Positions 1-64,000 of a stretch of 64,000 bases of DNA are shown here, piece after piece (position 1 is the first letter of the stretch; every line of letters starts with the position of its first letter). Location: NCBI GenBank assembly GCA_964536485.1, contig CAZHXX010000002.1:18647-82646 (forward strand). The letters are read 5' to 3'. The notes beneath the pieces are model-generated. The model searched no databases, had not been told where the DNA came from, and saw nothing but the letters and a program-made list of their open reading frames with translations. Made by a program: the position numbers and the translations under genes. The DNA is from an uncultured Candidatus Saccharibacteria bacterium (GTDB taxonomy: Bacteria; Patescibacteriota; Saccharimonadia; Saccharimonadales; SZUA-47).

Positions 1-643
1 GCGGGACGTGTTGCGTATCTCTACGGAAGAGCACCGCAGTTTTGTCGAGCTTTAGTTTCTCGATAACTCTTATCCAAGTAGGTTTGCTATGCATGTGGAG
101 TTGGTCTATCCAGGGGGGTGAATTGTCTAGCCCGCTTTCCCACGGGTGTATAAGTAAAACCAGTCCTTCATTGTGAGGATCTCTCTCCGCGTAGAGCCAC
201 TTATGATAGGCCAAAAGTGCGGGGTACATATCTTGATACCAGCTTCTTTTTTCGACACGTTTGAGCTTTTGTCCGATCCGAACGATGGCTTCTGCGAACA
301 TTGGGGGCTGTGTGATACCCGTGGTAGAGACATGATCTGGAGCAAAAGCATTGCGCCACGACTGCCAAATGTTTCTGTCGCGCTTATGGGTGTCGCCTTC
401 TGCAAAAATAATGTTCGGGAGCATGCCGTTACTCCATTGCCCACGTAGCAAGCTTCGCAGTTCGTTTTGGGCTCTGGGTAGATCATACTCAGCAAGTCCT
501 ATAGCAATAAAGCAACTATCCCATAGCCATTGATGAGGATAAAGGTTTTCGACCGGCATCGTGTAATCACCACGCTGGTTTTTAAGCAGTATTTCCTTAC
601 AAGCTTCAAGAACTTGGTCATTTGTCGGGAGAGCCTCTTCCAT
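1..643 (-). CDS. six-hairpin (alpha/alpha)6 glycoside hydrolase, GH63-like (mannosyl-/glucosylglycerate hydrolase-like); 5' part only, 3' end lies beyond window start
   Basis: Not in ORF track (no stop inside window). Own translation of the complement from ATG at 643-641: MEEALPTNDQVLEACKEILLKNQRGDYTMPVENLYPHQWLWDSCFIAIGL...LVLLIHPWESGLDNSPPWIDQL, open to position 1. WDSxF and ESGxDNSPxW motifs recalled from GH63/GH37-type glycosidases. Confidence 0.6.
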   Translation of the reverse strand, partial: MEEALPTNDQVLEACKEILLKNQRGDYTMPVENLYPHQWLWDSCFIAIGLAEYDLPRAQNELRSLLRGQWSNGMLPNIIFAEGDTHKRDRNIWQSWRNAFAPDHVSTTGITQPPMFAEAIVRIGQKLKRVEKRSWYQDMYPALLAYHKWLYAERDPHNEGLVLLIHPWESGLDNSPPWIDQLHMHSKPTWIRVIEKLKLDKTAVLFRRDTQHVP

Positions 644-3073: not shown

Positions 3074-3646
3074 ATGTCAGCTGATAGACTTACTGTTGTA
3101 GGAGCGATGCTTGACGTGACGGATCGTTCACGCACAGAACTCGAGGCTTTCCATTTTGGAACAATTATACTTCCAGGTGAAACTCCGCAACAAGACGAAT
3201 ACGAAAGACTACGCGCACAAGCACTTGGTTTAAAAGAACTTTATGTGACACCGAAGTTTGAAGGAACGCAAAATACTGCAGATTTAATGGGTCGTACCTG
3301 TCTGGAAGCGAGCGTTGCATTTATCATGAACATAAAACCTTCTTCTTGGGCTGACGTGCGACGGTTTGAGTTGAACGGTCTGGTTAGGGAGCTTGCTCCG
3401 TTTGTGGCAACAGCTGCAGCTAAATACCCAAAAACACCTGGAAGTGTAGATAACTTTAGACACCCATCGCAAGTCGAACTACGCACGCATTCAGAACGGA
3501 TGCGATTTGTTATGGGCCACGCACAGAGTTACGCCACATTGATAGAAGTGTCTCGACCAACAAATGTTGGTGAAGTTGACACTTTTGTTGCTATGGTGAG
3601 AGACTTCCTTGGGAGAATTACTGTCGAGAGCGAACGGCGGCACTAA
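3074..3646 (+). CDS. hypothetical protein (190 aa), third gene of the pyrC-like/pyrD-like unit
   Basis: Long ORF on the same strand, 29 nt after pyrD-like. No motif recognised (no PRPP-binding loop). 3' end overlaps convergent yajQ by 4 nt. Confidence 0.5.
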   Translation: MSADRLTVVGAMLDVTDRSRTELEAFHFGTIILPGETPQQDEYERLRAQALGLKELYVTPKFEGTQNTADLMGRTCLEASVAFIMNIKPSSWADVRRFELNGLVRELAPFVATAAAKYPKTPGSVDNFRHPSQVELRTHSERMRFVMGHAQSYATLIEVSRPTNVGEVDTFVAMVRDFLGRITVESERRH

Positions 3647-4137
3647 CGGAAATTAGTAAAGAGAACCGGAAAGTTGAAGTCGGCTTCTTTGACTGCCTTC
3701 ATCGCTTCTTGTAGTTCATCTTTTTTACCGCTCATAACTCTGACACTGTCGCCTTGTATCTGTGCTTTTACTTTTGGCAGTTTATCACGCAACAGTTTCG
3801 TAATTTTCTTAGCATCGTCTTGAGTTAAGCCGTTCTTAAGAGGTATTTGCCAAATCTTACGTAAGTTTGTGGTTTCGGGTTCTTTACTCGTGTCAAAAGT
3901 TTTTTGGCTAACGCCACGTGTGCCGGCTTTTTTACGAAGCATATCCATAATTGCATCAAGATGGTATTGGTTGTCGCCGTAGAGTTTAAGCCCTTTTTTG
4001 TCATCAAGCCACTCAAGAGCTGTATGCGTGCCTTTTAGATCAAAACGTGACCCTAGTTCGCGTTGGACCTGGTCATACACGTTGTTCATTTCGCCAATGT
4101 CGTAAGTTGATTCTATATCAAAACTAAATGTTCCCAT
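3643..4137 (-). CDS. yajQ: YajQ family nucleotide-binding protein (UPF0234)
   Basis: 164 aa. FSFDIES start, RFDLKG and C-terminal LFTNFR match the YajQ pattern. -10-like TATACT lies 7 nt upstream of the ATG with no SD. Confidence 0.85.
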   Translation of the reverse strand: MGTFSFDIESTYDIGEMNNVYDQVQRELGSRFDLKGTHTALEWLDDKKGLKLYGDNQYHLDAIMDMLRKKAGTRGVSQKTFDTSKEPETTNLRKIWQIPLKNGLTQDDAKKITKLLRDKLPKVKAQIQGDSVRVMSGKKDELQEAMKAVKEADFNFPVLFTNFR

Positions 4138-9462: not shown

Positions 9463-10479
9463 ATGAAAGAAATTAATACAGCGCGTGAGGCGCTTCGCCA
9501 AGAGTTCGAAAAGCTTGAGGATAAAAAAGCTATAATGCGTAGTGTTCAGTTGCGCGCGCTCTTTGATGGAATTCGAGAGATAGAGGCGGATAAGCGAGCT
9601 GAATATGGGCAAGCCGTAAACAGGCTAAAGCAAGAACTGCAAGAATGGATTGATGAACAATCCCAAACTGTTGATGTCGTGACGGCTATAGATGTGACCG
9701 CACCGTGGGATGTTAACACGGCTTCAGATAAACGACCAAGATTCTTACCGAGCACACAGGGTAGTGTGCACCCTCTTAAAACAGAGATTGAGCGTATCTG
9801 TGATATTTATCAGCGCATGGGCTTTGTGGTTGAAGAATCGCGCGAGATTGATGATGACTACCACATGTTTGCGAGCCTTAACTTCCCTGAAGGCCATCCG
9901 GCCCGTGATGACTATGACACTTTCATGACAGACGAAGGGTTTATTGCACCAGCGCACACTAGCACTATGCAGAACAGAATGCTCAAGAAATATCGAGATA
10001 ACCTAGAAAAAGGCGAGCCAATTGCCGTTATTGTCCCGGATAGGGTCTTCCGTAACGAGGATATTGATGCAACTCATGAACATACGTTCTACCAGATTGA
10101 AGGTGTGTATGTGTCGCGTGGAGTGACAGCTGGAAATCTCATCGCGACGCTGTCAGCTTTTATGAATGAATATTTTGGCCAAGAATTAAAGACAAAATTA
10201 CAGCCATTTTACTTTCCGTTTACGGAGCCAAGTTTTGAGTTTGCGATTGAGCGACCAGATGTTTTAAAAAAGGATAATTCTGAAGAGCAAAAGTGGCTTG
10301 AACTGCTCGGCTGCGGGATGATTCACCCCAACGTTTTAAGAGAAGCGGGGATAGACCCAGAAGTTTATACGGGTTTTGCTTGGGGAAATGGTATTGAGCG
10401 TATGGTCATGATGAGGAACCGGATAGAAGATATTCGTCATTTTGAGTCGGGTAACTTAAAGTTTTTGAGGCAATTTTAA
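9463..10479 (+). CDS. pheS: phenylalanine--tRNA ligase alpha subunit
   Basis: 338 aa. Class II core motifs (FPEGHPARD, RVFRNEDIDATHEHTFYQIEG, GWAWGNGIERMVM). Confidence 0.95.
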   Translation: MKEINTAREALRQEFEKLEDKKAIMRSVQLRALFDGIREIEADKRAEYGQAVNRLKQELQEWIDEQSQTVDVVTAIDVTAPWDVNTASDKRPRFLPSTQGSVHPLKTEIERICDIYQRMGFVVEESREIDDDYHMFASLNFPEGHPARDDYDTFMTDEGFIAPAHTSTMQNRMLKKYRDNLEKGEPIAVIVPDRVFRNEDIDATHEHTFYQIEGVYVSRGVTAGNLIATLSAFMNEYFGQELKTKLQPFYFPFTEPSFEFAIERPDVLKKDNSEEQKWLELLGCGMIHPNVLREAGIDPEVYTGFAWGNGIERMVMMRNRIEDIRHFESGNLKFLRQF

Positions 10480-18374: not shown

Positions 18375-18398
18375 TGTATTACTTAACAATTTAAAAGT

Positions 18399-18489
18399 AT
18401 AAAGAGTGCAAGGTAGAGTTCTAGCTCGTCGATCTTGCCAGCAACCACGTAAATTTTTACGAACGGTGCTCCATCTAGCCTGACTTTGT
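18399..18489 (+). ncRNA. candidate SAM-I-clan (SAM-IV or SAM-I/IV-like) riboswitch aptamer in the metK leader
   Basis: Core strings aGAGUG, P2 GCAAG(18408-12)/CUUGC(18434-38), CAGCAACC, P3 hairpin CGUAA-auuu-UUACG, GGUGC. CUAG in the P2 loop and CUAG in J3/4 could form the pseudoknot. P1 AUAAAG(18399-404)/CUUUGU(18484-89). Hand-folded only. Confidence 0.4.
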
Positions 18490-18522
18490 TCAGGAAAAAT
18501 AGTTTTGAATGTATCTTCAATA

Positions 18523-18559
18523 TTCTTTCTTATCCTGAGTACAGCCAGAGAAGAAAGGA
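18523..18559 (+). promoter_or_regulatory. SD-sequestering helix (expression platform) upstream of metK
   Basis: UUCUUUCUU (18523-31) pairs over 9 bp (one G-U) with AAGAAAGGA (18551-59), which contains the metK SD gaaagga. AAAGAG of the P1 5' strand can alternatively pair with UUCUUU. Confidence 0.4.
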
Positions 18560-18566
18560 TATTTTT

Positions 18567-19682
18567 ATGTCATATCAATTATTTACCAGCGAGAGCGTTG
18601 CCGCGGGTCATCCAGACAAGATAGCTGATGCTATTAGTGATGCACTGCTTGACGCGTTGCTTGAGCAGGATCCGTTTGCGCGCGTTGGCCTAGAAACGAT
18701 TGTTGGTGCTAATAAGATTGGGTTGTTCGGCGAGATTAAAACAACTGCTGTGGTTGATATTGAATCAATTGTACGTGCCACGGTAAAACGACTAGGATAT
18801 ACAAACCCGGCTTGGAACTTTTCTTACGAGTCACCTATAGATGACAATATTCATCAGCAGTCACCAGAGATAGCAATCGGAGTAGACAATGACGGCGCTG
18901 GAGACCAAGGGATGATGTTTGGTTTTGCATGCAACGAAACGCCGGAACTTATGCCTCTGCCAATAACGCTTGCACATGCGCTTACGAGGACGCTCGACGC
19001 AAAACGCGAGTCTGGTGAAATTGCATTTTTACGGCCTGACGGTAAAAGTCAGGTAACCGTGAGATATGAGAATGGCGTGCCTACGAAGATAGAGAAGGTT
19101 GTTATGGCAGTGGCGCATGACGAGGAGACGCCAGCAGAGAAAGTGCATCAGATCGTAAAAACAGAAGTAGTTGACGAAGCCTTGAGTGCGTACGGATTTG
19201 ATATTGATGATAGCGAGGTCGTGGTAAACGGCACTGGCTTATGGCATATACCTGGACCAGACACTGACGCAGGCCTGACAGGGAGGAAAATTGTGGTTGA
19301 CGGCTATGGTGGATATGCCAGAGTTGGAGGAGGTGCGTTTAGCGGTAAAGATCCGAGTAAAGTAGACCGTTCTGCTGCGTACGCTGCACGCTACCTTGCA
19401 AAAAATGTTGTAGCCAAAGGTTACGCGAGTAAGTGTGAGGTTGCACTTGCGTACGTCATTGGGAAGGCTAAACCACTGATGCAAGCATTTGATACGTTCG
19501 GGAGCGAGACTGCGCCTCTTGATGAGATTGAGAAGTATATAGCTGGGCTTCTCGATACAAGTGTGAAGGGGATTGTTGAAGGGTTGAATTTAAGAAAACC
19601 AATTTATAGCGCCACTACGGCATATGGTCATTTTGGGAAAAAAGAGTTACCGTGGGAACAGCTAGACAAAAAAACTAGATAA
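18567..19682 (+). CDS. metK: S-adenosylmethionine synthase
   Basis: 371 aa from ATG 18567 (MSYQLFTSESVAAGHPDKIADAISD). GAGDQGMMFGFA, GGGAFSGKDPSKVDRSAAY. Confidence 0.95.
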   Translation: MSYQLFTSESVAAGHPDKIADAISDALLDALLEQDPFARVGLETIVGANKIGLFGEIKTTAVVDIESIVRATVKRLGYTNPAWNFSYESPIDDNIHQQSPEIAIGVDNDGAGDQGMMFGFACNETPELMPLPITLAHALTRTLDAKRESGEIAFLRPDGKSQVTVRYENGVPTKIEKVVMAVAHDEETPAEKVHQIVKTEVVDEALSAYGFDIDDSEVVVNGTGLWHIPGPDTDAGLTGRKIVVDGYGGYARVGGGAFSGKDPSKVDRSAAYAARYLAKNVVAKGYASKCEVALAYVIGKAKPLMQAFDTFGSETAPLDEIEKYIAGLLDTSVKGIVEGLNLRKPIYSATTAYGHFGKKELPWEQLDKKTR

Positions 19683-31328: not shown

Positions 31329-32234
31329 ATGGGGAAAAATTTTACTGCACGCAAACTTTCGCTTGATAAGCTTCAGCTAAAAGCTAATGAGATACGTCAA
31401 GACATTATTACGTCGCTAGAAGCGGCGGGAAGTGGTCACAGTGCTGGGCCCTTGGGTCTTGCAGATATTTTTACGGCGCTTTATTTTGATATCTTGAAGC
31501 ACGATCCTAAAGACCCAGAGTGGGAAGAACGAGATATATTACTTTTGAGCAATGGACACTGCGTCCCTGTGCAGTACGCTAGCATGGCTCACGCGGGATA
31601 TTTTCCTCGGAAGGAACTTCTGACTCTGCGCAAGTTTAAGAGTCGATTGCAGGGCCATCCGGAACGGGATATGTTGCCCGGGCTTGAAAATACGAGTGGC
31701 CCATTGGGGTGTGGCTTGAGCCAGGCAGCTGGTATAGCATTGGCAATGCAAATGAATAAACAAAGCCATCGTTGGGTGTATGTCATCACGGGGGATGGTG
31801 AGCTTAACGAGGGCAATATCTGGGAAGCTGCCATGTTTACGGCAAAATATAAGCTTCACAATGTTATTGCTATTGTTGACAGGAACAACATCCAGATAGA
31901 TGGCACAACAGAGCACGTCATGCCACTTGAAGACTTGCGAGGTAAATGGGAGAGCTTTGGATGGCATGTTATCGAAATCGATGGAAATGATGTTGAAGCC
32001 GTGATAGACGCTTGTGCTATGGCGCGCGCGATTGTTGAAAAACCTATAGTTATTATTGCTCATACTATTCCGGGCAAGGATGTTGACTATATGGAGTATG
32101 ACTACCACTGGCATGGTATTCCTGTGGGTCTTCAAGATGTTGCGGGAGCACCTCCTAAGAACGAACAGGCTCATGAGGCTCTCAAAGAGCTTCGTAGCTT
32201 GCATGGAAAGATAAAAAACGAAGGTACGCACTAA
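31329..32234 (+). CDS. tkt: transketolase, N-terminal (TPP-binding) subunit
   Basis: 301 aa. GSGHSAGPLG, GDGELNEGNIWEA. Confidence 0.9.
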   Translation: MGKNFTARKLSLDKLQLKANEIRQDIITSLEAAGSGHSAGPLGLADIFTALYFDILKHDPKDPEWEERDILLLSNGHCVPVQYASMAHAGYFPRKELLTLRKFKSRLQGHPERDMLPGLENTSGPLGCGLSQAAGIALAMQMNKQSHRWVYVITGDGELNEGNIWEAAMFTAKYKLHNVIAIVDRNNIQIDGTTEHVMPLEDLRGKWESFGWHVIEIDGNDVEAVIDACAMARAIVEKPIVIIAHTIPGKDVDYMEYDYHWHGIPVGLQDVAGAPPKNEQAHEALKELRSLHGKIKNEGTH

Positions 32235-33200
32235 ATGGACTATCTCTATCTATTGGACATAAAAGACTGGAAAAGTGAGCCAACGCGTAAGGGTTTTGGC
32301 CGAGGATTGCTTAAGGCGGGAGAAGAAGATGAGAACGTTGTTGCGCTTTGTGCTGACCTCACAGGCTCTACTCAAATTGAGCCATTTGCGAAGGCTTTCC
32401 CTGAGCGTTTTATAGAGGTAGGAATTGCCGAGCAGAACCTGGTTACTGTTGCGAGTGGTATGGCAAAGATGGGCAAAGTACCTTTTACTTCTAGTTATGC
32501 AGCTTTTAGCCCAGGGAGGAACTGGGAGCAGATTCGAACAACCATTTGTCTTAATGACCAGAAGGTAAAGATTATTGGCTCACACGCGGGTTTATACACT
32601 GGCCCAGATGGGGCAACGCACCAGATGCTTGAAGATATTGCACTCATGCGCGTCCTTCCGAATATGGTAGTCATCGTTCCTGGAGATGCGGTGGAGGCAG
32701 AAAAAGCAACGCTCGCTATTGCCAAAGATTCAAGACCCGCATACTTACGACTGGCACGTGACGACTCGCCGGTGGTGACGACCGACAAAACCCCATTTGA
32801 GATTGGCAAAGCCTACGTATTTGCTCACGGAACTGATTTAACGATTGTCTCAACTGGCGTGATGACACCCGTAGCACTTGAAGCAGCAGAAAAACTATTT
32901 CACCAGGGAATCGACGTGGAAGTGGTGCATTGTCCAACGATAAAACCACTTGATACGGCAACTTTAGTAAAAAGCGCCAAAAAAACAGGCCGCGTGCTTA
33001 CGCTTGAAGAAGCGCAGATTGCGGGTGGCCTTGGTGGTGCTGTTGCTGAATGTCTTGCCGAAGAGTGTCCTGTGCCTATGATACGCATGGGGGTCAAGGA
33101 TGAGTTCGGTCAGAGCGGTACCCCCGCGGAGCTACTTGCCCACTACGGCCTTGACGTAAAACACGTCGTCCTGCAAGCCCATGCACTAATGGATAAGTAG
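32235..33200 (+). CDS. tkt: transketolase, C-terminal (pyrimidine-binding) subunit
   Basis: 321 aa. FIEVGIAEQNLV, GPDGATHQMLEDIALMR. ATG immediately follows the N-subunit stop. Confidence 0.9.
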   Translation: MDYLYLLDIKDWKSEPTRKGFGRGLLKAGEEDENVVALCADLTGSTQIEPFAKAFPERFIEVGIAEQNLVTVASGMAKMGKVPFTSSYAAFSPGRNWEQIRTTICLNDQKVKIIGSHAGLYTGPDGATHQMLEDIALMRVLPNMVVIVPGDAVEAEKATLAIAKDSRPAYLRLARDDSPVVTTDKTPFEIGKAYVFAHGTDLTIVSTGVMTPVALEAAEKLFHQGIDVEVVHCPTIKPLDTATLVKSAKKTGRVLTLEEAQIAGGLGGAVAECLAEECPVPMIRMGVKDEFGQSGTPAELLAHYGLDVKHVVLQAHALMDK

Positions 33201-39405: not shown

Positions 39406-42400
39406 ATGTATAAGATGAATGGTGTAAAACAACTATCGAGAATCTTAGTCTCAGGCATTCTCCTAAGTGCGCAAATTATTCCATACTTTTCCTTAAACAC
39501 GCAAAAAGCATCAGCGGCAACAAGTAGCGTCAGAATTTGTCACGTAAATAATAATGTGAACTCTCCTTATGTAAGTTTGTCAGTAAGTGCTGATTCGGTT
39601 GATGGTTTAGGAGCTGGCGATCACTACCTCGAGCACACCGGCCCAATTGCAACGAGCGTTTCTGTCGCACAGCAATTTAAAGATAATCATGAAAGTTGGG
39701 GAGATATTATTCCTCCGGTCCCTGGTGTTCATGCTGGGCTTAACTGGACAAGTGTTGGTCAAGCCATATGGAATGCTAACTGTAGTATTACTACTATTGA
39801 GGTAAAAAAAGTACTTGTGCCAGCAAATGATCCAGGATTGTTTAATCTTAAGATTGAAGGCTCTGTCTATGCCACAAACATCGGCAACAATGGGACAACC
39901 GGTGCAATTTATATTGACGATACCCAAGACATCAGTGTTGGCGAAACAGCCGGAACCTCAACTGCTCTTGGCGATTATTCAACCAGTATCGTGTGTAAGA
40001 ATGATAATGGAAATGGGGCTATAGTAGAGACGGGGAACCCGGCGAGTGTTAATAGCCGTGATGACACTATCTCGAATCTCGATATTAGTGCAGGGGATGC
40101 CATAGTTTGCGTATTTACGAACACCCGTCTCTTTGGTACGCTCGTCGTTAATAAAATTCTCAATCAAGATAATGGCGGGAACAAGACCGCGAGTGATTTT
40201 AGCTTTACTGTATCTAATTATAATAGCGGAAATCCAATTGCATTTGAGTCCGATGGGTCAAATTCTTTGCAGGTACCTATTGGCACCTATAGTGTTGTTG
40301 AGACAGCTACTCCTGGTTACGACGTAACTTATCAGACGTGTAGTGATATTACGATTACAGCAAACACATCAAAGACCTGTACGATTACAAATACTTCGCA
40401 ACCCGCATACCTTACAGTGACAAAAGTAGTACAGAATAATAATGGAGGCAATGCGCAACCAGATGATTTTGGACTTACCGTAAATGGCAAACTAGTACTT
40501 TCAGGCCAGAAAAAGGCCTATTTAGCAGGAACGCCACTTACTCTTGATGAAACGCAACTTCCTGGCTATGAATTTGTTTCTATCACCGGCGACGAAGCTT
40601 GTCCGTCAGCGCTCGATGGTTCTCTGACACTTCAGCCAGGTGATGATATTTCTTGCACGATTACTAACAAAGACGTTGCACCAACTGTAACTATTGTTAA
40701 GAAAGTGATAAATGATAACGGTGGTACCCTCACGGCAAACGATTTTGGTATTAGCATGAATGACTCTGCGGTAAGTTTTGGTACTCCCCAAGTAAACGGC
40801 TTCACGAGTACTTATACTGCAACGCAAGCTGTGACGGCAAACACTACAATTGTACTTTCGGAAGAAGACACACCTGGGTATAGCGAGGGGAGTTGGAGCT
40901 GCACAAACAGTGAGACAGTGATTATATTTACTATCTCATTTCTGCTAGAAGAAGGACAAAACATTACTTGTACTGTTACTAACAACGACCAGGCTCCAGC
41001 TTTGTCGCTTATTAAGAATGTCGTAAATAGTTATGGCGGAAACACCACCGCAGACGCGTGGACGCTTATAGCTCAGCATGCAAACGATACGCCAGTTATT
41101 GCACAACAGGGAATGATTGCTCCGCAAAGTAATGGCCAACAGGCGGCTACACCTCTTGTTCCTGTCGAATCAGGAGTCTTTTATACCTTGTCAGAGTCTA
41201 ATGGTCCAACAGGCTATGTCGCAGGCGAATGGACGTGTGAAGGTGGCGAGCTGGTAAATGGCGCAGTCAAACTCGTGTACGGTACAAAAGTATTTTGTTC
41301 AATTACAAATACTGAAGTACGCCCGACGCTCACGGTAGTGAAGTACGCAACCAATGATAATGGTGGCACCATGCAGGCAGATGATTTTACGCTGTATGTG
41401 AACAATGAAGAGTTGACTGATCCTGAAGTAAGTGAAGAGGTGGAAGGTACCTCAAGTGCACTCTACGAGCTTCCCCTCTACAGTAATGCTGAATATAACG
41501 TTTCGGAGAGTGAAGTTCCTGGGTATGAGAATACGTCGATCGACTGTATGGATGTGACAAACGGTCTCGAAGACGCACCAGCACTCAGCCAGCCATTTAC
41601 CGCCTCCTCAGGCATGAAAGTACGCTGTGAGGTGTACAATAACGACAAAGCACCTGTTGTTCATGTGACAAAAACTACCGAAGGAGAAGAATGCTTTTAT
41701 GATGAATCATGGTACGACGAAGAAAACTGGTGTGAGGGTGAGCGATTCAACTTCACTATGAATCTCGGTGGTGAAGAATATACCGACTTTGGCCTCGGCA
41801 ATGGTGATGAGTTCACGACAGAGAGCGATATGAAGGCCGGAGTCGTTGAGGTGACTGAAGCTGAAACTGAAGGCTGGTTCCTTGTTGAGGCAAACTGCTA
41901 CAGCTATGCTAACGACAATATGATGGAATATCTTAGCACTACTTTTAAGACTGAGATAGGGAAAGAATACTACTGCGATTTCTATAACGAAAAAGCAGGG
42001 CAAGTTATCGTAACGAAGTTTCACGATTATGATGAAGACGGTGAGTGGGATGAAGGCGAACCTGCGCTCTCTGACTGGGAGATGACCTTAACGCCTCATA
42101 GCTATTGCGAAGGGAGTCTCTCAAAAATAACTGCGGTGCAGGCAATTGATAGTGTTGTGCTTGATAATTGTGAGCAGCCCAAAGTTGTATCAATGAAAGA
42201 GACTACTGACGAAGACGGTGAAGCCCTTTTTGATGGGTTACGTCGAGGGCGGTATGACGTCGACGAAATTATGCAAGACGGCTGGGTGCAATCTTCGATT
42301 TACTGCGAAAATGACTGGGATAAAGTAGTTCGTATATCAAGTGAGCAACAGAAAATGAGCCACAGTGTGTATGTACGACCAGGCCAGACAGCTTACTGTT

Positions 42401-43041
42401 ATGTCGGGAACTATAAAGAGCCACAAGTTTCAATAGAGAAGACTAACAATACGACAGGTCCAGTACTGCGTGGGACTCAGATTACCTTTACGATAGTTAT
42501 AACCGTACCTGGCGTCGCTACAAGCGGGATTCTGCATGGCACATATAATGGATCAACCTACGTTCCGGTTACTGTGTTTGATGAGTTCACTAACGAATTT
42601 GAATATATTATAGGAAGCTACACGGCTGTCTCAAGCATCCGAGGCGATCTAAAAGCGCAAGGTATCGTGACTGATCCAAATTATGCATCACCAGGAACTT
42701 GGAACTTAACTTCAGAAACATCAAATGATGTTTTGCCAGGTGAGGTGATTACGCTTACCTACAAGGGAATCGTAGAGCCGAACGCACCTGCTGCGAAGTA
42801 TAAAACAACAGCAACTGTAACGGGTTACGGCGATACGATCACTGTTCAAGTGAGCGATACGGACGATGACCAAGTACTTGTGTACGTTCCTGCAGTACTA
42901 GGTACTTCTACGACGGCAAAAAAACAGCTCGCATCCACCGGAAGTAACGCGGTATATGCACTTATTTTAGGATGTAGCGTGATCGCAGTGAGCTGGCAGG
43001 TGTCTAGGCTATCAAAGAAACAACCAGCATCGTCAAAATAG
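39406..43041 (+). CDS. LAXTG-anchored multidomain cell-surface protein (tandem prealbumin/Cna-B/DUF11-like Ig-fold domains)
   Basis: 1211 aa. Signal peptide (...QKASA/ATSS), N-terminal ICH..NSPY..GDIIPP..NW..C module, about 9 consecutive beta-rich domains, C-terminal LASTG (42928-42942) + hydrophobic helix + KKQ. ggaggtg SD. Confidence 0.85.
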   Translation: MYKMNGVKQLSRILVSGILLSAQIIPYFSLNTQKASAATSSVRICHVNNNVNSPYVSLSVSADSVDGLGAGDHYLEHTGPIATSVSVAQQFKDNHESWGDIIPPVPGVHAGLNWTSVGQAIWNANCSITTIEVKKVLVPANDPGLFNLKIEGSVYATNIGNNGTTGAIYIDDTQDISVGETAGTSTALGDYSTSIVCKNDNGNGAIVETGNPASVNSRDDTISNLDISAGDAIVCVFTNTRLFGTLVVNKILNQDNGGNKTASDFSFTVSNYNSGNPIAFESDGSNSLQVPIGTYSVVETATPGYDVTYQTCSDITITANTSKTCTITNTSQPAYLTVTKVVQNNNGGNAQPDDFGLTVNGKLVLSGQKKAYLAGTPLTLDETQLPGYEFVSITGDEACPSALDGSLTLQPGDDISCTITNKDVAPTVTIVKKVINDNGGTLTANDFGISMNDSAVSFGTPQVNGFTSTYTATQAVTANTTIVLSEEDTPGYSEGSWSCTNSETVIIFTISFLLEEGQNITCTVTNNDQAPALSLIKNVVNSYGGNTTADAWTLIAQHANDTPVIAQQGMIAPQSNGQQAATPLVPVESGVFYTLSESNGPTGYVAGEWTCEGGELVNGAVKLVYGTKVFCSITNTEVRPTLTVVKYATNDNGGTMQADDFTLYVNNEELTDPEVSEEVEGTSSALYELPLYSNAEYNVSESEVPGYENTSIDCMDVTNGLEDAPALSQPFTASSGMKVRCEVYNNDKAPVVHVTKTTEGEECFYDESWYDEENWCEGERFNFTMNLGGEEYTDFGLGNGDEFTTESDMKAGVVEVTEAETEGWFLVEANCYSYANDNMMEYLSTTFKTEIGKEYYCDFYNEKAGQVIVTKFHDYDEDGEWDEGEPALSDWEMTLTPHSYCEGSLSKITAVQAIDSVVLDNCEQPKVVSMKETTDEDGEALFDGLRRGRYDVDEIMQDGWVQSSIYCENDWDKVVRISSEQQKMSHSVYVRPGQTAYCYVGNYKEPQVSIEKTNNTTGPVLRGTQITFTIVITVPGVATSGILHGTYNGSTYVPVTVFDEFTNEFEYIIGSYTAVSSIRGDLKAQGIVTDPNYASPGTWNLTSETSNDVLPGEVITLTYKGIVEPNAPAAKYKTTATVTGYGDTITVQVSDTDDDQVLVYVPAVLGTSTTAKKQLASTGSNAVYALILGCSVIAVSWQVSRLSKKQPASSK
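40135..41652 (+). repeat. five tandem protein-domain repeats (about 90-110 aa each) inside the surface protein
   Basis: Units start at 40135, 40405, 40681, 40996 and 41323. Each opens with (T/S)hxhhKxhxNxxGG(N/T)xxxxDF/W and closes with C(T/S/E)hxN. Similarity is at protein level, not as an identical DNA repeat. Confidence 0.7.
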
Positions 43042-52704: not shown

Positions 52705-52746
52705 TGCTTATTGCATCAGCGTGCTACACTAGTATTAGGAACTTTT

Positions 52747-53805
52747 ATGCCAAAAAAGACAAAAAACATACGGATATCTAAAAAGACTACTGCGCACAAG
52801 AAGCAACATCCAAAACACTTCTTAAAAGTTTATTGGCCGTATATACCAATTTTATTTGTCGTGGTATTTGGTATGTTTTTTGGTGGCGTACGACCACAAC
52901 AGCGTCAAAACCATCCCGCTACTCTTGCTTATGCTACCGAGATGAGCATCCAAGGCCTTCTTCAGTACACAAATTCTCAACGTGCAAGTAATGGGCTGGG
53001 ACCACTTACAATAAACTCGAAGCTCAATACTTCTGCCCAAGCAAAAGCAAACAATATGGTATCGCGTGATTATTGGGCACATAACACACCAGATGGTGAT
53101 GAGCCTTGGGTATTTATCGATGCTACAGGATATCAGTATCAAAAAGCGGGTGAAAATCTTGCCTATGGGTTCTCTAACAGTGAAGCAACAGTTATTGGCT
53201 GGATGAATAGTCCTACTCATCGTGCAAATATTCTTGATCAGACATATACAGAAGTTGGATTTGGCTTTGTTAATGCGGATAATTTTGTTAACACCGGACA
53301 AGAAACGGTTGTTGTGGCCCACTATGGGGAGCCAATCAAAGTAGCTTCAGCGCCGACGACAGTCGAAACCAAACAAGTTGCTCCACCAGCCCAGACTCCA
53401 GCAACAAAGAACGCGACGATAGAGAAGACGCCCGTTCAAGAGACGCCAGCGTCAGAGTCAGAAAAACCACAGGAAGAACCAGTAAAAACGCCTGAGCGCC
53501 TCTCAGAAGATAGGGTGAACCAGCCTATTACAACGGAGAACCCTGTTCCGCAAGAGACACCATCAACAAACATTACGCGGCTTCAACGTCTTACTGGAGG
53601 GAAGGCACCCTGGAGCGCGCTTGCAGTGTCTGTTGTGAGTTTTATCGTCGTCGTTTTATGGCTCGTAAAGCACGCTGTTTTAGTGAAGCGATTTGTACTG
53701 CACGGTGAACATTTTGTGGCGCATCATCCTGTGCTTGACTTGTCAGTCGTAAGTATTGCAGCCATGGCAGTCTATCTGTCTCAATCATCCGGCGTCGTGC
53801 GTTGA
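52747..53805 (+). CDS. CAP/SCP (PR-1-like) domain protein with Pro/Thr/Glu-rich linker and C-terminal TM segments
   Basis: ATG 52747. N-terminal TM. AQAKANNMVSRDYWAHNTPDG...GENLAYGF...GWMNSPTHRANIL equals the YkwD/CAP pattern. Confidence 0.8.
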   Translation: MPKKTKNIRISKKTTAHKKQHPKHFLKVYWPYIPILFVVVFGMFFGGVRPQQRQNHPATLAYATEMSIQGLLQYTNSQRASNGLGPLTINSKLNTSAQAKANNMVSRDYWAHNTPDGDEPWVFIDATGYQYQKAGENLAYGFSNSEATVIGWMNSPTHRANILDQTYTEVGFGFVNADNFVNTGQETVVVAHYGEPIKVASAPTTVETKQVAPPAQTPATKNATIEKTPVQETPASESEKPQEEPVKTPERLSEDRVNQPITTENPVPQETPSTNITRLQRLTGGKAPWSALAVSVVSFIVVVLWLVKHAVLVKRFVLHGEHFVAHHPVLDLSVVSIAAMAVYLSQSSGVVR

Positions 53806-53864: not shown

Positions 53865-55460
53865 ATGTCACAAAACGCTCGTCTTGATGAAGAACTATCG
53901 ACTGCCCGTCGGGCACGCGTGTTAAACATGCCATACTCCGACACGTCGGCCATTCAAGATAAGATTTTGTATAAGCAGTTGTTGAGCATTCCTGAAATGC
54001 GACAGTATAAAATAATCCCGCTCACCGCAGACCCACACCATGTACGCTTTGGCATAACAACGACAACGTCGCAAAAAACCATGCAACAGCTCACTCAACG
54101 CTTTCTAGACCAACAGGTCACGTTTAGCATTATTAGCGACGCCGGCTATAGAGAATACATGCAACTTTATGATCCGCCCAAAAAGGTTGAATACACCGAT
54201 ATTTCTATTACGAAAAAACTCGATGAGCAGTCGATTGCGCAGATATCCTCAACGCTTTTACAAGTCAGAGCAGACGATATGCTGGCGTATCTTGTGCAAC
54301 AAGCCTTTCGACTCAACGCATCAGATATACATCTTGAAAGTAAACATGAAGGCGCGAGAATACGTCTACGGGTGCATGGTGTCTTGCATTCCGTCGCAAC
54401 CTTGAATATTGATAAATATCGGCAGTTGATGTCAGCGCTAGCGAGTGCAGCAAACATTAGCACGAGTGCTCAGGACGACCAGACCGGACAAATAAATCAG
54501 ACCTATAAAATGGCTACCGGTGAAGACGTGCTAGTCAATTTGCGTGTTGAGACGGTTCCGGCAATTAATGGCATTGACGCGGTTTTGCGGTTGTTTAACT
54601 TCCGCACCGACATGTTGAAGCTGGAGAAGCTTGGACTCGATGAGTATCAATCTGATGTTATGAGAAGTATCATTTCGCATCCTTCGGGACTTGTGCTCAT
54701 TGTTGGTCCAACAGGATCAGGTAAGACGACAACATTGTACAGCCTTATTAATGAGCTAAATACCGATGAGCGAAAAATTATCACTCTTGAAGACCCAGTA
54801 GAGTACCATATCGAAGGCATTACGCAGATACCAGTGCAGTCTCGTTCGGGACAGAGTTTTTCTGAGAAGTTCCGAGCCGTTATGCGACTTGACCCCGACG
54901 TGATTATGGTGGGGGAAATTCGTGATACTGATACAGCAAAGACTGCGTTACAGGCAGCGCTTACTGGTCATCTCGTGTTGAGTACGTACCACGCAAGCTC
55001 GGCATCGGCAGCGATGACGCGGTTACTGGATGCAATTGGAGAAAATCCTCTCTATGCAAGTGCCATACGACTCGTCCAAGCACAACGGCTTGTCCGGCGG
55101 CTCGATGATGCAACAAAACAAGAAATTCCTGTTGAGCCTGAGGTTGAAAGGCATCTCGAAACAATCGTAAAAGGAATCACGGCACAAGTCGACCTGTCTT
55201 TTTTGCCCGACGCGAAGCTCTATAAGCCGGGGAGTTCAGAAGAAAATCCCTTCGGATTTAGCGGGCAGTTTGCTATACGAGAACTACTGCTTATGACTCC
55301 GGATATGCGTCAGCTTCTAAGTAGGCCTGTGCATGAACTATCGACAGAGCTCATAGAGGAGGTCGCCGTAAAAAATGGGATGCTCACAATGCAACAAGAC
55401 GGCATACTCCATGTCTTGAAGGGTGATACGACACTCGAAGAAATAAACAGAGTTATTTAA
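53865..55460 (+). CDS. GspE/PilB-family secretion ATPase (type IV pilus/T2SS assembly ATPase)
   Basis: 531 aa. T2SSE_N-like N-terminus, Walker A GPTGSGKTTTL, LEDPVEY, GEIRD, His box. Confidence 0.85.
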   Translation: MSQNARLDEELSTARRARVLNMPYSDTSAIQDKILYKQLLSIPEMRQYKIIPLTADPHHVRFGITTTTSQKTMQQLTQRFLDQQVTFSIISDAGYREYMQLYDPPKKVEYTDISITKKLDEQSIAQISSTLLQVRADDMLAYLVQQAFRLNASDIHLESKHEGARIRLRVHGVLHSVATLNIDKYRQLMSALASAANISTSAQDDQTGQINQTYKMATGEDVLVNLRVETVPAINGIDAVLRLFNFRTDMLKLEKLGLDEYQSDVMRSIISHPSGLVLIVGPTGSGKTTTLYSLINELNTDERKIITLEDPVEYHIEGITQIPVQSRSGQSFSEKFRAVMRLDPDVIMVGEIRDTDTAKTALQAALTGHLVLSTYHASSASAAMTRLLDAIGENPLYASAIRLVQAQRLVRRLDDATKQEIPVEPEVERHLETIVKGITAQVDLSFLPDAKLYKPGSSEENPFGFSGQFAIRELLLMTPDMRQLLSRPVHELSTELIEEVAVKNGMLTMQQDGILHVLKGDTTLEEINRVI

Positions 55461-60892: not shown

Positions 60893-60975
60893 AATAAAAG
60901 ATAAGATGTATAGAGAGGACATTCTTCTCAACTTGAAGGGTAGTGAGCCCAAACGCAGAGAGGAGTGAAAGAACA

Positions 60976-62142
60976 ATGGAATTTGATGTAAAATTACTCG
61001 CCCAGGCAATGAAACTTATTGCCGAAGAGAAGAATCTAGACGAAACACTCGTGCAAGAAATTGTTGAAGGTGCCTTAGCGGCAGCTTATAAGAGAGATTA
61101 CGGCGACAGAGAGCAAGAAGTGCGTGTTGCGGTTAACCTTTCAACTGGTGCTGTCGATGTGTATGTCCAAAAAGAAGTCGTACAAGTAGTAGGTGATCCG
61201 AACTTTGAAATTAGCCTTGACGATGCAAAGAAGGCAAAGAAAGACAGCGTCCTTGGTGACATGATCGAGCAGTACGTTGAAGTGAAAACTTTTGGTCGCG
61301 TAGCCGCGCAGACAGCAAAGCAGGTTATTATGCAACGATTGCGTGAATCTGAGCGTGAAGTTGTCATGGCGGAGTACGAGGATAAGGTTGGCCAGCTTGT
61401 TAATGGTATTGTGACGCGCGTTGAAAACCGTCTCGTACGAGTTGAAGTTGGAAAGGCCCAAGCTATTATGCCAGCGAGCGAACAAAGTTCAGCTGAGCGG
61501 TACTTCCCAGGCCAACGACTCAAGTTGTTCTTGAAAGAGATTGAAAAAAGCTTCCGCGGACCGCAACTAATTGTCAGTCGCGGGTCAGCTGAACTGGTAA
61601 GGCAACTTTTCTTTGCTGAAGTTCCAGAGATGGAAGGTGGCGCGGTCGAGATGCGAGCGATTGCCCGCGAGGCGGGTGTGCGAACTAAGCTGGCTGTTAG
61701 CTCGACTGTACAGGGTGTTGATCCAGTGGGTACCTTTGTTGGCGGACATGGAACACGCGTGAATGCCGTGGTGAACGAAATCGGCGACCAAGAAAAGATT
61801 GACATTGTGGTATGGGACGAAAATCCAGAAGTATTTATCGCCAGCGCACTAGCACCTACAAAGGTAACAAAAGTAACTATCGACCCAGAGACAAAAAGAG
61901 CGAAGGTAGTTGTACCTGAAGACCAGTTGAGCGTGGCTATTGGTAAGGGTGGGCAGAATGTCCGTCTTGCGAGCAAGCTAACTGGCTATGAGATTGATAT
62001 CAATGCAGACCAAACTTCGGCTCCAGAAGTAGAAGTTGCATCAGCTCCCCTTACTGTTGATAAGGTGCAAAAACACAAACTCAAGAGAAAATCAGATCTT
62101 GAGAATAGTCTCTTGAGCGCTATCGACGAACACGCTGAATAA
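60976..62142 (+). CDS. nusA: transcription termination/antitermination factor NusA
   Basis: ATG 60976 (agaggag SD). N-terminal domain, S1 (GQLVNGIVTRVE), two KH domains (GHGTRVNAVVNEI; IGKGGQNVRLASKLTG). Confidence 0.9.
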   Translation: MEFDVKLLAQAMKLIAEEKNLDETLVQEIVEGALAAAYKRDYGDREQEVRVAVNLSTGAVDVYVQKEVVQVVGDPNFEISLDDAKKAKKDSVLGDMIEQYVEVKTFGRVAAQTAKQVIMQRLRESEREVVMAEYEDKVGQLVNGIVTRVENRLVRVEVGKAQAIMPASEQSSAERYFPGQRLKLFLKEIEKSFRGPQLIVSRGSAELVRQLFFAEVPEMEGGAVEMRAIAREAGVRTKLAVSSTVQGVDPVGTFVGGHGTRVNAVVNEIGDQEKIDIVVWDENPEVFIASALAPTKVTKVTIDPETKRAKVVVPEDQLSVAIGKGGQNVRLASKLTGYEIDINADQTSAPEVEVASAPLTVDKVQKHKLKRKSDLENSLLSAIDEHAE

Positions 62143-62181
62143 AACCTCGGATATAGATTCAAGCGGTAATGGCAAAGATAA

Positions 62182-62208
62182 TTAGCACTCAGTATTGACG
62201 AGTGCTAA
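62182..62208. promoter_or_regulatory. CIRCE element (HrcA operator), perfect consensus
   Basis: TTAGCACTC-agtattgac-GAGTGCTAA read directly, identical to the canonical TTAGCACTC-N9-GAGTGCTAA. Confidence 0.8.
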
Positions 62209-62224
62209 TTTTGCTGTGTATAAT
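62195..62224 (+). promoter_or_regulatory. sigma70-type promoter TTGACG-18-TATAAT of clpC, overlapped by CIRCE
   Basis: -35 at 62195-200, -10 at 62219-24, clpC ATG 7 nt downstream, no SD. Confidence 0.6.
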
Positions 62225-62231
62225 CGTAGCT

Positions 62232-64000
62232 ATGGATCAAAACGCTGACGATTTTCAAGATTTTCTTCACCACTTAAGTGACAACGCATTACAGAGTTTG
62301 CGTCATGCAGACGGTATTGCGAGGGCTACGGGGAGCGCTTATGTTGGTACTGAGCATCTTCTTCTAGGAGTACTCGCGCAAGAAAATTCACTAGGGGCGA
62401 AAATTTTACGGCAAAATGGGGTGTCAATAGAAAAAGCAAAGCTCGCAATGAACCTTTCTGCTAATGGTGCAAACTTGATGACAAACATGGGTGCAAAGGG
62501 GTTGAGCGAAGCGGCAAAACTGACACTGAAAATGAGCTGGGAGGTTGCGCAAGAGTATGCTCAAGAAACATGTGGAACTGAACATATAGTTTATAGTATT
62601 TTATCTCAGAAAAATGCAAGTGCGACGGTACTACTCAGGAATATGAATGTGCCGGTTGATAGTGTACTGTCAGAACTAGAGCTATTGCTTAACAAGCAAA
62701 GCTATGATCAGACAGATGAAATCGGTACTACTCGACGCAAAAAGGGAAAAAAGACGCTCCTTGAACAGTACAGTACCGACCTCACTGCGCAAGCACGTGA
62801 AGGAAAGCTTGACCCTGTTATTGGGCGAGATATGCAGATACGACGACTCGTTACTATCCTAAATAGACGAACGAAGAACAACCCTGTGCTCATAGGTGAG
62901 CCCGGCGTAGGTAAAACAGCAATCGTTGAAGGAGTAGCGCAACGAATAGTCAATGATGATGTGCCTGATGCACTGGTTGACAAGAGGATCGTGATACTTG
63001 ATTTGGCAGCAATGATCGCTGGTACGAAATACCGCGGAGAGTTTGAAGACAGACTTAAAAAGGTAATGCGAGAGCTAGAAGCCGATAGAAGCACTATAGT
63101 GTTTATCGACGAAATACACCAGCTGGTTGGGGCTGGCTCTGCTGAAGGGTCTATGGATGCAGGCAATATCCTAAAGCCGAGTTTAGCGCGTGGAAAGATT
63201 CAGATGATAGGTGCAACAACTACTGCTGAATATACGAAGCACATTGAAAAGGATGCGGCACTTGAGCGCCGGTTGCAGCCTGTTACAGTCCCAGAAACTA
63301 CCGAACAAGAAACTCTCGCAATTTTGCGCGGACTTAAGAAGCATTATGAAGATTTTCATGCGGTGACAATAGACGACGAAGTACTTGTTGATACTGTTGC
63401 GCTGGCTGCTCGATATATTCAAGATAGATTTATGCCAGATAAAGCGATAGATTTACTTGACGAAGCAGCGGCTCATTTGCGCGTAGAAAAAGGCAAAACG
63501 CCACCAAAACTTCGTGAACTGACTAAAGAACTGAAACTAGTGCAACTCCGGATAGACGATGCTGTTGATGCAGAGGACTATGAGAGAGCTGCCAAAGAAA
63601 AACAGCGGGCGAGTCAGTTGCAAGCAGACATTGTAGAGCTTGAAAAAACCAGCCAAAGTGCACGCAGGATAAAGCTTTCAAGTGATGATGTTGCTGATGT
63701 TGTCTCTCGGATGACCGGTGTGCCAGTGAGCAAAGTTATCCGCTCAGAGGTATCATATCTTATGAACCTGGAGAAAAAACTCTCGAAGCATATTATTGGC
63801 CAGCAAGAAGCGGTGTCTGCGGTGTCTCGTGCTTTGCGTCGTAGCAGGAGTGGCGTAGCTAGTAGCAAGCGTCCAATTGGATCGTTCATTTTTATGGGTC
63901 CTACTGGTGTTGGAAAAACTGAGCTAGCCCGTAAACTTGCGAGCGAGTTTTTTGGCAACAAAGATGCCCTCATAAAGATTGATATGAGTGAGTTCTCGGA
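62232..64000 (+). CDS. clpC: ATP-dependent Clp protease ATP-binding subunit ClpC (5' 589 codons; continues beyond window end)
   Basis: Not in ORF track (no stop in window). Own translation: MDQNADDFQDFLHHLSDNALQSLRHADGIARATGSAYVGTEHLLLGVLAQ (Clp_N), GEPGVGKTAIVEG, UVR-like DAEDYERAAKEKQRASQL linker, second Walker A GPTGVGKTELA. Confidence 0.9.
   Translation, partial: MDQNADDFQDFLHHLSDNALQSLRHADGIARATGSAYVGTEHLLLGVLAQENSLGAKILRQNGVSIEKAKLAMNLSANGANLMTNMGAKGLSEAAKLTLKMSWEVAQEYAQETCGTEHIVYSILSQKNASATVLLRNMNVPVDSVLSELELLLNKQSYDQTDEIGTTRRKKGKKTLLEQYSTDLTAQAREGKLDPVIGRDMQIRRLVTILNRRTKNNPVLIGEPGVGKTAIVEGVAQRIVNDDVPDALVDKRIVILDLAAMIAGTKYRGEFEDRLKKVMRELEADRSTIVFIDEIHQLVGAGSAEGSMDAGNILKPSLARGKIQMIGATTTAEYTKHIEKDAALERRLQPVTVPETTEQETLAILRGLKKHYEDFHAVTIDDEVLVDTVALAARYIQDRFMPDKAIDLLDEAAAHLRVEKGKTPPKLRELTKELKLVQLRIDDAVDAEDYERAAKEKQRASQLQADIVELEKTSQSARRIKLSSDDVADVVSRMTGVPVSKVIRSEVSYLMNLEKKLSKHIIGQQEAVSAVSRALRRSRSGVASSKRPIGSFIFMGPTGVGKTELARKLASEFFGNKDALIKIDMSEFS

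Follow-up and report, generated by a model that had tools for sequence, protein, structure and literature searches.

A predicted HrcA operator enclosing the -35 hexamer of the clpC promoter in Saccharibacteria

At the downstream end of a 64,000-nucleotide (nt) stretch of contig CAZHXX010000002.1, from an uncultured Candidatus Saccharibacteria bacterium (this whole 64-kb stretch is referred to here as the window), the promoter of the unfoldase gene clpC coincides with a copy of the inverted repeat that controls the expression of chaperones (CIRCE), the operator sequence of the repressor HrcA. The locus raises the question of whether clpC is controlled in this lineage by the repressor of the chaperone genes. 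On comparative evidence it is probable, at about 0.8, that the element is a functional HrcA operator overlapping a sigma-70-type clpC promoter, that the mRNA made from this promoter would be leaderless, and that clpC would be part of a lineage-wide HrcA regulon.

The full 27-bp element, TTAGCACTCAGTATTGACGAGTGCTAA, has no mismatch to the CIRCE consensus (18/18 arm bases), which is given as 9-N9-9 in PMC545781 and PMC4245973; its arms form a 9-bp inverted repeat exactly 9 nt apart (Table 1). A search of the window that tolerated up to 3 mismatches gave no second CIRCE match (expectation from shuffled sequences, 0.03), and the chance expectation for an exact 18-base match is, by our own calculation, about 2e-6 per 64 kb. 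The element is also in promoter position, covering about -50 to -24 relative to an inferred transcription start at 62232. The -35 hexamer lies inside it and, paired with the -10 hexamer, scores 11 of 12 consensus positions in a promoter scan; no second promoter-like site is present in 61800-62500. A first-pass annotation of this DNA had described the perfect CIRCE, the enclosed -35 and the TATAAT with an ATG 7 nt beyond it, and all of these coordinates proved to be correct.

When 80 clpC loci from species-representative genomes were scanned for CIRCE, 28 Saccharibacteria loci being among those that include the upstream region, the palindrome was found to be conserved in relatives: of the 28 other Saccharibacteria species, 26 have CIRCE with 0-2 mismatches directly upstream of clpC. 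A closed Saccharibacteria genome with CIRCE at clpC is CAURIH010000001.1 (993 kb). There is no CIRCE at clpC in around 50 Bacillota and Chloroflexota loci; a CIRCE-like match with 3 mismatches at locus L069 (Anaerotignum) was treated as chance. Statistics for the arms and spacer were taken over the window site and the 26 orthologous sites, that is, 27 clpC promoters. Just 7 of 486 arm positions are off consensus (98.6% identity). Compared pair by pair, the arms are on average 0.97-0.98 identical, whereas the average falls to 0.35 for the spacer and to 0.31 for the 20 nt upstream. The AA and TT that extend the palindrome in the window flank CIRCE in 13 of the 27, the A at position 0 being shared by 21 and the T at position 28 by 22. 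Within the 9-nt spacer, every promoter has a TTG (27/27) and 20 have TTGAC, in a register that begins at spacer position 1 in 15, at position 5 in 7 (window included) and at positions 2-4 in 5; a TAnnnT hexamer follows 16-19 nt downstream of the -35 in all 27. Since the rest of the spacer varies freely, selection acts on retaining a -35 between the half-sites. It is clear that CIRCE at clpC is under strong purifying selection across this phylum-level lineage.

An alternative is that the site is a relic, hrcA having been lost from this genome and clpC being transcribed constitutively from the embedded promoter. Consistent with this, hrcA is missing from the window and the site has been lost in some Saccharibacteria (L017 and L023). 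However, a palindrome of 18 bases that was no longer bound would decay, and yet all 18 are intact here; the arms hold to 98.6% of the consensus across species whose ClpC proteins are just 46-75% identical, and a short form of HrcA is widespread in the order. A relic is, on these grounds, very unlikely.

It might also be supposed that the palindrome works mainly as an RNA hairpin, either an intrinsic terminator or a stabiliser of the nusA transcript, and is no protein operator. The region, 39 nt beyond the nusA stop codon, does fold as a stable hairpin (-18.4 kcal/mol, z = -3.7), and TTTT comes after the stem. However, no terminator was called, the loop being 9 nt long and only 4 T following, and the arms are conserved in sequence beyond what pairing demands, with an uncompensated change in 5 of the 6 variant sites. 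The position of the element in relatives points the same way. nusA adjoins clpC in 19 of them, and the distance from CIRCE to the clpC start stays at about 20-180 nt even where 350-1460 nt separate the two genes; furthermore, it is kept at clpC in loci with no nusA nearby (L021, L022, L024-L026, L028 and L029). CIRCE thus tracks clpC and not the 3' end of nusA. The same sequence also stands ahead of hrcA, dnaK, dnaJ and clpP, behind unrelated upstream genes. A role mainly in RNA is highly unlikely, and the hairpin may have a secondary, insulating one.

Table 1. Positions of the operator, the promoter and the flanking genes in the window.
Feature	Position	Strand	Details
CIRCE operator	62182..62208	.	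TTAGCACTC, 9-nt spacer (AGTATTGAC), GAGTGCTAA
Extended palindrome AA-CIRCE-TT	62180..62210	.	11-bp arms; from the sequence
-35 hexamer TTGACG	62195..62200	+	Spacer positions 5-9 and first base of right arm; promoter scan
-10 hexamer TATAAT	62219..62224	+	18 nt after -35, 7 nt ahead of ATG
clpC, 5' part	62232..64000	+	589 codons, runs past window end; Clp_N x2, AAA, AAA_lid_9, start of AAA_2
nusA, upstream neighbour	60943..62142	+	NusA domains; stop codon 39 nt ahead of CIRCE

The gene behind the operator is cut by the end of the window, and its identity was judged from its orthologues. Twelve of these, 822-829 amino acids (aa) long, have, in the second AAA module, an (L/M/F)GF loop that aligns to the ClpP-docking VGF of a Bacillus ClpC, a loop that ClpB lacks and that was seen in the orthologues only, as the window's own ClpC ends before that region (beyond 64000); their length and the docking tripeptide justify the gene name. 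As to the middle domain, which is short in ClpC and a long coiled coil in ClpB, the match of the ClpB models to the window protein is broken in two near residue 476 and the ClpA model matches in one stretch, with all scores below the cut-offs for this truncated protein; at about 826 aa, the orthologues have a length in keeping with ClpC. The nearest relatives, 46-75% identical, are in metagenome-assembled genomes (MAGs) of Candidatus Saccharibacteria and Saccharimonadales, and the next are ClpC proteins of Bacillota and Chloroflexota, at 43-48%. The orthologues share an N-terminus, M-x(2-8)-DFQDF, that begins at the equivalent ATG, often immediately 3' of a stop codon, and the ATG at 62232 is therefore taken as the true start. 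Two other in-frame starts, GTG 62202 and TTG 62211, were considered and are unsupported by the orthologues.

No Shine-Dalgarno sequence precedes this ATG (62232-62234), and TATAAT ends 7 nt ahead of it, where a spacing of 5-9 nt without a Shine-Dalgarno sequence is expected of a leaderless mRNA. We infer that clpC mRNA is leaderless, transcription being predicted to begin with the first base of the ATG. The first-pass annotation had called clpC apparently leaderless, and the same layout recurs both in orthologous promoters and elsewhere in the window: in 11 of the 27 clpC promoters (the window's included) the -10 hexamer lies 3-10 nt ahead of the ATG with no Shine-Dalgarno sequence, and the geometry is found in at least 7 other window genes. 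Over the window genes (n = 52), strong -10 hexamers end exactly 7 nt ahead of the start codon in 6 and 9 nt ahead in 2, compared with about 1.6 in each 4-nt bin at other distances. By this count, starts of the leaderless type seem to be common in this genome. They include the gene starts at 3643-4137(-), 9463, 19701, 20110, 31329, 37222 and 48575, and those lacking a Shine-Dalgarno sequence include pheS, uvrB, dnaE, an ATP-binding cassette (ABC) transporter gene and the N-terminal half of a split transketolase.

Alternatively, the spacing of TATAAT and ATG may be coincidental, transcription or translation of clpC starting elsewhere. The remaining 16 of the 27 promoters have leaders of 37-142 nt, with a Shine-Dalgarno-like motif in 14 of the 16, and since so many orthologues carry them a leader must be compatible with clpC function. 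Against this stand the 11 promoters in which a -10 hexamer lies 3-10 nt from a conserved ATG with the Shine-Dalgarno sequence absent, the window-wide peak of strong -10 hexamers at 7 nt before start codons, and the lack of conservation of the other in-frame clpC starts. It is unlikely that clpC has a leader in this organism.

The arrangement suggests how repression could operate. The -35 has a half-site on either side of it, the right one taking up the first half of the promoter spacer, so that a bound HrcA dimer would have to exclude the sigma factor, and with it RNA polymerase, from the -35; this mode of action is proposed on the basis of the geometry and of knowledge about HrcA from other bacteria. 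Heat or unfolded-protein stress would inactivate HrcA and the clpC promoter would open, giving a leaderless clpC mRNA that begins at the ATG. In Bacillus subtilis the inactivation of HrcA works through the titration, or availability, of GroEL. The lineage-wide regulon would consist of hrcA, dnaK, dnaJ, clpC and, in some families, clpP; a single repressor would then cover both folding and Clp-dependent degradation, including the role that CtsR has for clpC in Bacillota.

Control of this clpC by CtsR itself was rejected, there being neither a CtsR box nor an adjacent ctsR. The box (A/G)GTCAAA-NAN-(A/G)GTCAAA gives 9 weak matches in the window (2-3 mismatches), which is the chance level, and none of these is near 62 kb; the earlier observation that no GGTCAAA direct repeat precedes clpC is upheld. 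A CtsR probe found ctsR adjoining clpC in every Bacillota locus, which served as the positive control. With the same probe, ctsR was found next to clpC in no Saccharibacteria clpC locus, nor in the window.

CIRCE also occurs at other genes in the lineage. With an embedded -35, it lies directly ahead of clpP at L021:21453-21479 and L022:10348-10374, where Pfam (CLP_protease) confirms the gene, and it precedes clpP in L146 and L182 as well; in L024-L026, L028 and L029 there is no CIRCE in front of clpP. When metagenomes were scanned for CIRCE whose spacer has TTG at positions 1-3, at least 120 sites were obtained, and most of these have a heat-shock gene as a neighbour, upstream or downstream. 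The forward-oriented downstream gene encodes HrcA at at least 31 sites, DnaK at at least 11 and GroES/GroEL at at least 9; ClpC, DnaJ, HtpG and an FmdB-type zinc-ribbon protein follow with at least 4 sites each, ClpB, ClpP and Hsp20 with at least 2 each, and an RpoH-like sigma factor with at least 1. The regulon had been described as merged or rewired. The second of these terms is an overstatement, since clpB and lon of Mollicutes were already known to be under HrcA. The functional reading that had been offered for this site is, overall, supported by the comparative data.

Some of the non-classical neighbours of CIRCE at the metagenome sites were identified individually. The FmdB-type zinc-ribbon proteins, which are small, are that of L092, confirmed as PF09723, and those of L097, L157 and L187, by similarity to L092. 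An RpoH-like sigma factor stands by CIRCE in L088 and five others, and HtpG in L081, L084, L186 and L189.

The metagenome contigs can be placed by comparison with an 810-kb Saccharimonadales contig (L202; GCA_035247965.1), which has a classical hrcA-grpE-dnaK-x-dnaJ operon. Its hrcA is preceded by the CIRCE variant CTAGCACTC-TTGACTGAT-GAGTGCTAG at L202:9955-9981, ending 19 nt ahead of the ATG, and a second CIRCE copy lies ahead of dnaK. This hrcA also looks leaderless, because TATCAT is followed by 7 nt and then the ATG. The hrcA CIRCE overlaps the 3' end of the upstream open reading frame. CIRCE-preceded metagenome DnaKs are 73-82% identical to that of L202 over their full length, or 77-100% over the aligned N-terminal part; CIRCE-preceded DnaJs are 59-85% identical to L202 DnaJ, and five CIRCE-preceded HrcAs 48-82% identical to L202 HrcA. 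It is from the similarity of these three proteins that the contigs bearing their genes are assigned to the same lineage as L202.

The HrcA of this lineage is itself unusual. A profile of Saccharibacteria-type HrcA returned at least 8000 candidates, all with E<=1e-10, and the length of the short form is about 228-245 aa, with some of about 304 (among the matches listed, most are 234-245 aa). Several of the NCBI records name Candidatus Saccharimonadales, and some are on contigs of 0.8-0.9 Mb; judged from these records, Saccharimonadales widely possess a predicted short HrcA, about 235 aa in length. The short form is also seen in a Falkowbacteria HrcA and in L110 and L192. Pfam finds both the HrcA and the winged-helix domains, with only the C-terminal half of the HrcA domain model matched, and the winged helix aligns closely with that of Thermotoga HrcA (1STZ), including QPHTSAGR(I/V)PTDKGYRFY. 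In the alignment, about 100-110 central residues of canonical HrcA are absent. The missing region may correspond to what we take to be the inserted dimerising domain of the Thermotoga protein; the alignment and the Pfam profile coverage suggest that short HrcA may lack a dimerisation domain. An AlphaFold2 model of short HrcA has a mean predicted local distance difference test score (pLDDT) of 53, and below 50 from residue 78 onward, and is too poor to place the missing domain. The protein is labelled 'transcriptional regulator', 'HTH domain-containing protein' or 'hypothetical protein' at NCBI, and with such generic labels genome surveys could wrongly call hrcA absent.

These properties bear on a further alternative, that CIRCE has come to be the binding sequence of some regulator in this lineage that is not HrcA. 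It would be in keeping with it that the local HrcA is atypical, at about 235 aa with its central region absent, and that NCBI does not name it HrcA. However, CIRCE lies directly ahead of short hrcA genes, the classical autoregulatory layout, and the winged helix is close to that of Thermotoga HrcA. Moreover, canonical HrcA binds a consensus (PMC545781) from which the CIRCE sequence here does not differ. Replacement by another protein is highly unlikely. Short hrcA genes located downstream of CIRCE include L202:10001-10708 and those of L087, L151, L158 and L178.

Several observations weigh against HrcA control of this clpC, or against its extension to the lineage. Two Saccharibacteria loci, L017 and L023 (the latter CP128407.1, oral taxon 488), have neither CIRCE nor a recognisable promoter ahead of clpC. 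A profile of Saccharibacteria HrcAs, which scored its positive control at 1e-127, finds no hrcA in the window; it is from the relatives and the intact palindrome that we infer hrcA to be encoded in this genome, and the co-occurrence of hrcA and a CIRCE-preceded clpC in one genome is putative. A Saccharibacteria groESL with CIRCE was not identified, the groES-groEL matches in the scan being labelled 'Patescibacteria group bacterium' or 'bacterium'. As about 100 central residues of HrcA are absent, its dimerisation and stress sensing may differ from those of the canonical protein. Lastly, no binding, transcription-start or heat-induction data for Saccharibacteria or the Candidate Phyla Radiation (CPR) were found in the literature. 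The terminator, relic and other-protein explanations are nevertheless weaker than that of an HrcA operator.

Related to the first two of these points, the nusA-clpC gap in L017 and L023 is just 40-54 nt (near position 9950-9998), and L023 has a clear Shine-Dalgarno sequence there. The two loci have probably lost promoter and operator together, and the short gap, with the Shine-Dalgarno sequence of L023, suggests that clpC is co-transcribed with nusA. A tblastn search with an approximate Bacillus HrcA sequence, used as a probe only, gave no match in the window or the clpC loci.

The arrangement may have a wider distribution. In a Candidatus Peribacteraceae MAG, CIRCE with 1 mismatch lies 15 nt ahead of clpC (L078:9941-9967), without an embedded -35, and HrcA control of clpC may thereby extend beyond Saccharibacteria to a second CPR lineage. 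A broader proposal, to which we would give even odds, is that proteostasis across Saccharibacteria, and possibly the wider CPR, has one master regulator only, the truncated HrcA, about 235 aa long and without the central inserted domain, acting on dnaK, dnaJ, probably groESL, and ClpC-ClpP through an operator placed around the -35 of often leaderless promoters. If true, the short HrcA would compactly do the work that Bacillota divide between separate HrcA and CtsR circuits.

The rest of the window holds mostly housekeeping genes (pheST, metK, secDF, gap, a split transketolase, fba, uvrB, gatAB and dnaE, and also pilB, a malic enzyme gene, rplS, rnhB, pepN and nusA), and no stress regulator is found among the genes of its 64 kb. 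An S-adenosylmethionine (SAM) riboswitch (Rfam RF00162, 44.9 bits) lies at 18394-18505, ahead of metK (18486-19682); the metK start is probably further downstream than listed, because the listed TTG and the riboswitch overlap, and Pfam matches the protein from residue 32 onward. The transketolase is split into an N-terminal gene (31329-32234) and a C-terminal gene (32235-33200), within a cluster for sugar-phosphate metabolism that includes gap, rpe, fba and a pfkB-family kinase gene. A protein of 1211 aa (39406-43041) has repeated domains of SpaA/prealbumin-like fold and is likely to be a surface or pilus-type protein; pilB (53865-55460) and a gene for a CAP-domain protein (52711-53805) are in the same window.

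How genes are regulated in Saccharibacteria and in the other ultra-small members of the CPR is almost unknown. A search of the full-text literature found nothing relevant on HrcA or CIRCE in Saccharibacteria, Patescibacteria or the 'Candidate Phyla Radiation'. Not found described were the targets (clpC and, for some families, clpP), the occurrence in this phylum, the design with the -35 in the spacer and its frequent pairing with leaderless starts. The CIRCE sites provide a testable regulon (hrcA, dnaK, dnaJ, clpC and clpP), a promoter-operator design and a set of candidate leaderless transcripts.

Among the known systems close to this one is the CIRCE of the B. subtilis dnaK and groE operons: the 9-N9-9 operator is identical, and the winged helix and C-terminal domain of HrcA are common to both. 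As in the class I system of B. subtilis, hrcA of Saccharimonadales has, in L202, a predicted autoregulatory layout, at the head of an hrcA-grpE-dnaK-dnaJ operon. Unlike in B. subtilis, the predicted targets include clpC (and clpP) and not chaperone operons only, the mRNA is predicted to be leaderless, and HrcA is about 100 residues shorter. Furthermore, the Saccharibacteria operator encloses the -35 hexamer, unlike the B. subtilis CIRCE, which Zuber and Schumann reportedly placed in 1994 between the transcription start and the start codon.

With the CtsR regulon of Bacillota (ctsR-mcsA-mcsB-clpC, clpP and clpE), the locus shares the target, clpC (43-48% identical), and the predicted logic of a repressor overlapping a stress promoter; it differs in that the operator is CIRCE, with no ctsR beside clpC and no heptad-repeat box. 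The clpP gene of Streptococcus salivarius, which Chastanet and Msadek are said to have found in 2003 to be under the dual control of CtsR and HrcA, is a precedent for CIRCE ahead of a Clp protease gene, although jointly with CtsR and in Bacillota; here, in contrast, CIRCE is the only recognisable operator, and it is on clpC. In Oenococcus oeni, according to the abstract of PMC6305308, CtsR is the sole identified regulator of stress-response genes, and this organism is the mirror image of the Saccharibacteria clpC case.

A parallel in principle is that of the Mollicutes, in which HrcA and CIRCE also control clpB and lon (PMC4245973, PMC5138195); control of AAA+ quality-control genes by HrcA is therefore not new in itself. 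Mycoplasma gallisepticum and Spiroplasma melliferum likewise have reduced genomes in which AAA+ quality-control genes as well as chaperones are placed under HrcA and CIRCE. The Saccharibacteria differ in belonging to another phylum, in being known in this respect from sequence, and in their predicted targets, which are the ClpP-dependent unfoldase ClpC and ClpP itself and not ClpB and Lon. They would constitute a second independent case, after the Mollicutes, of a reduced genome in which AAA+ protease genes are under the chaperone repressor.

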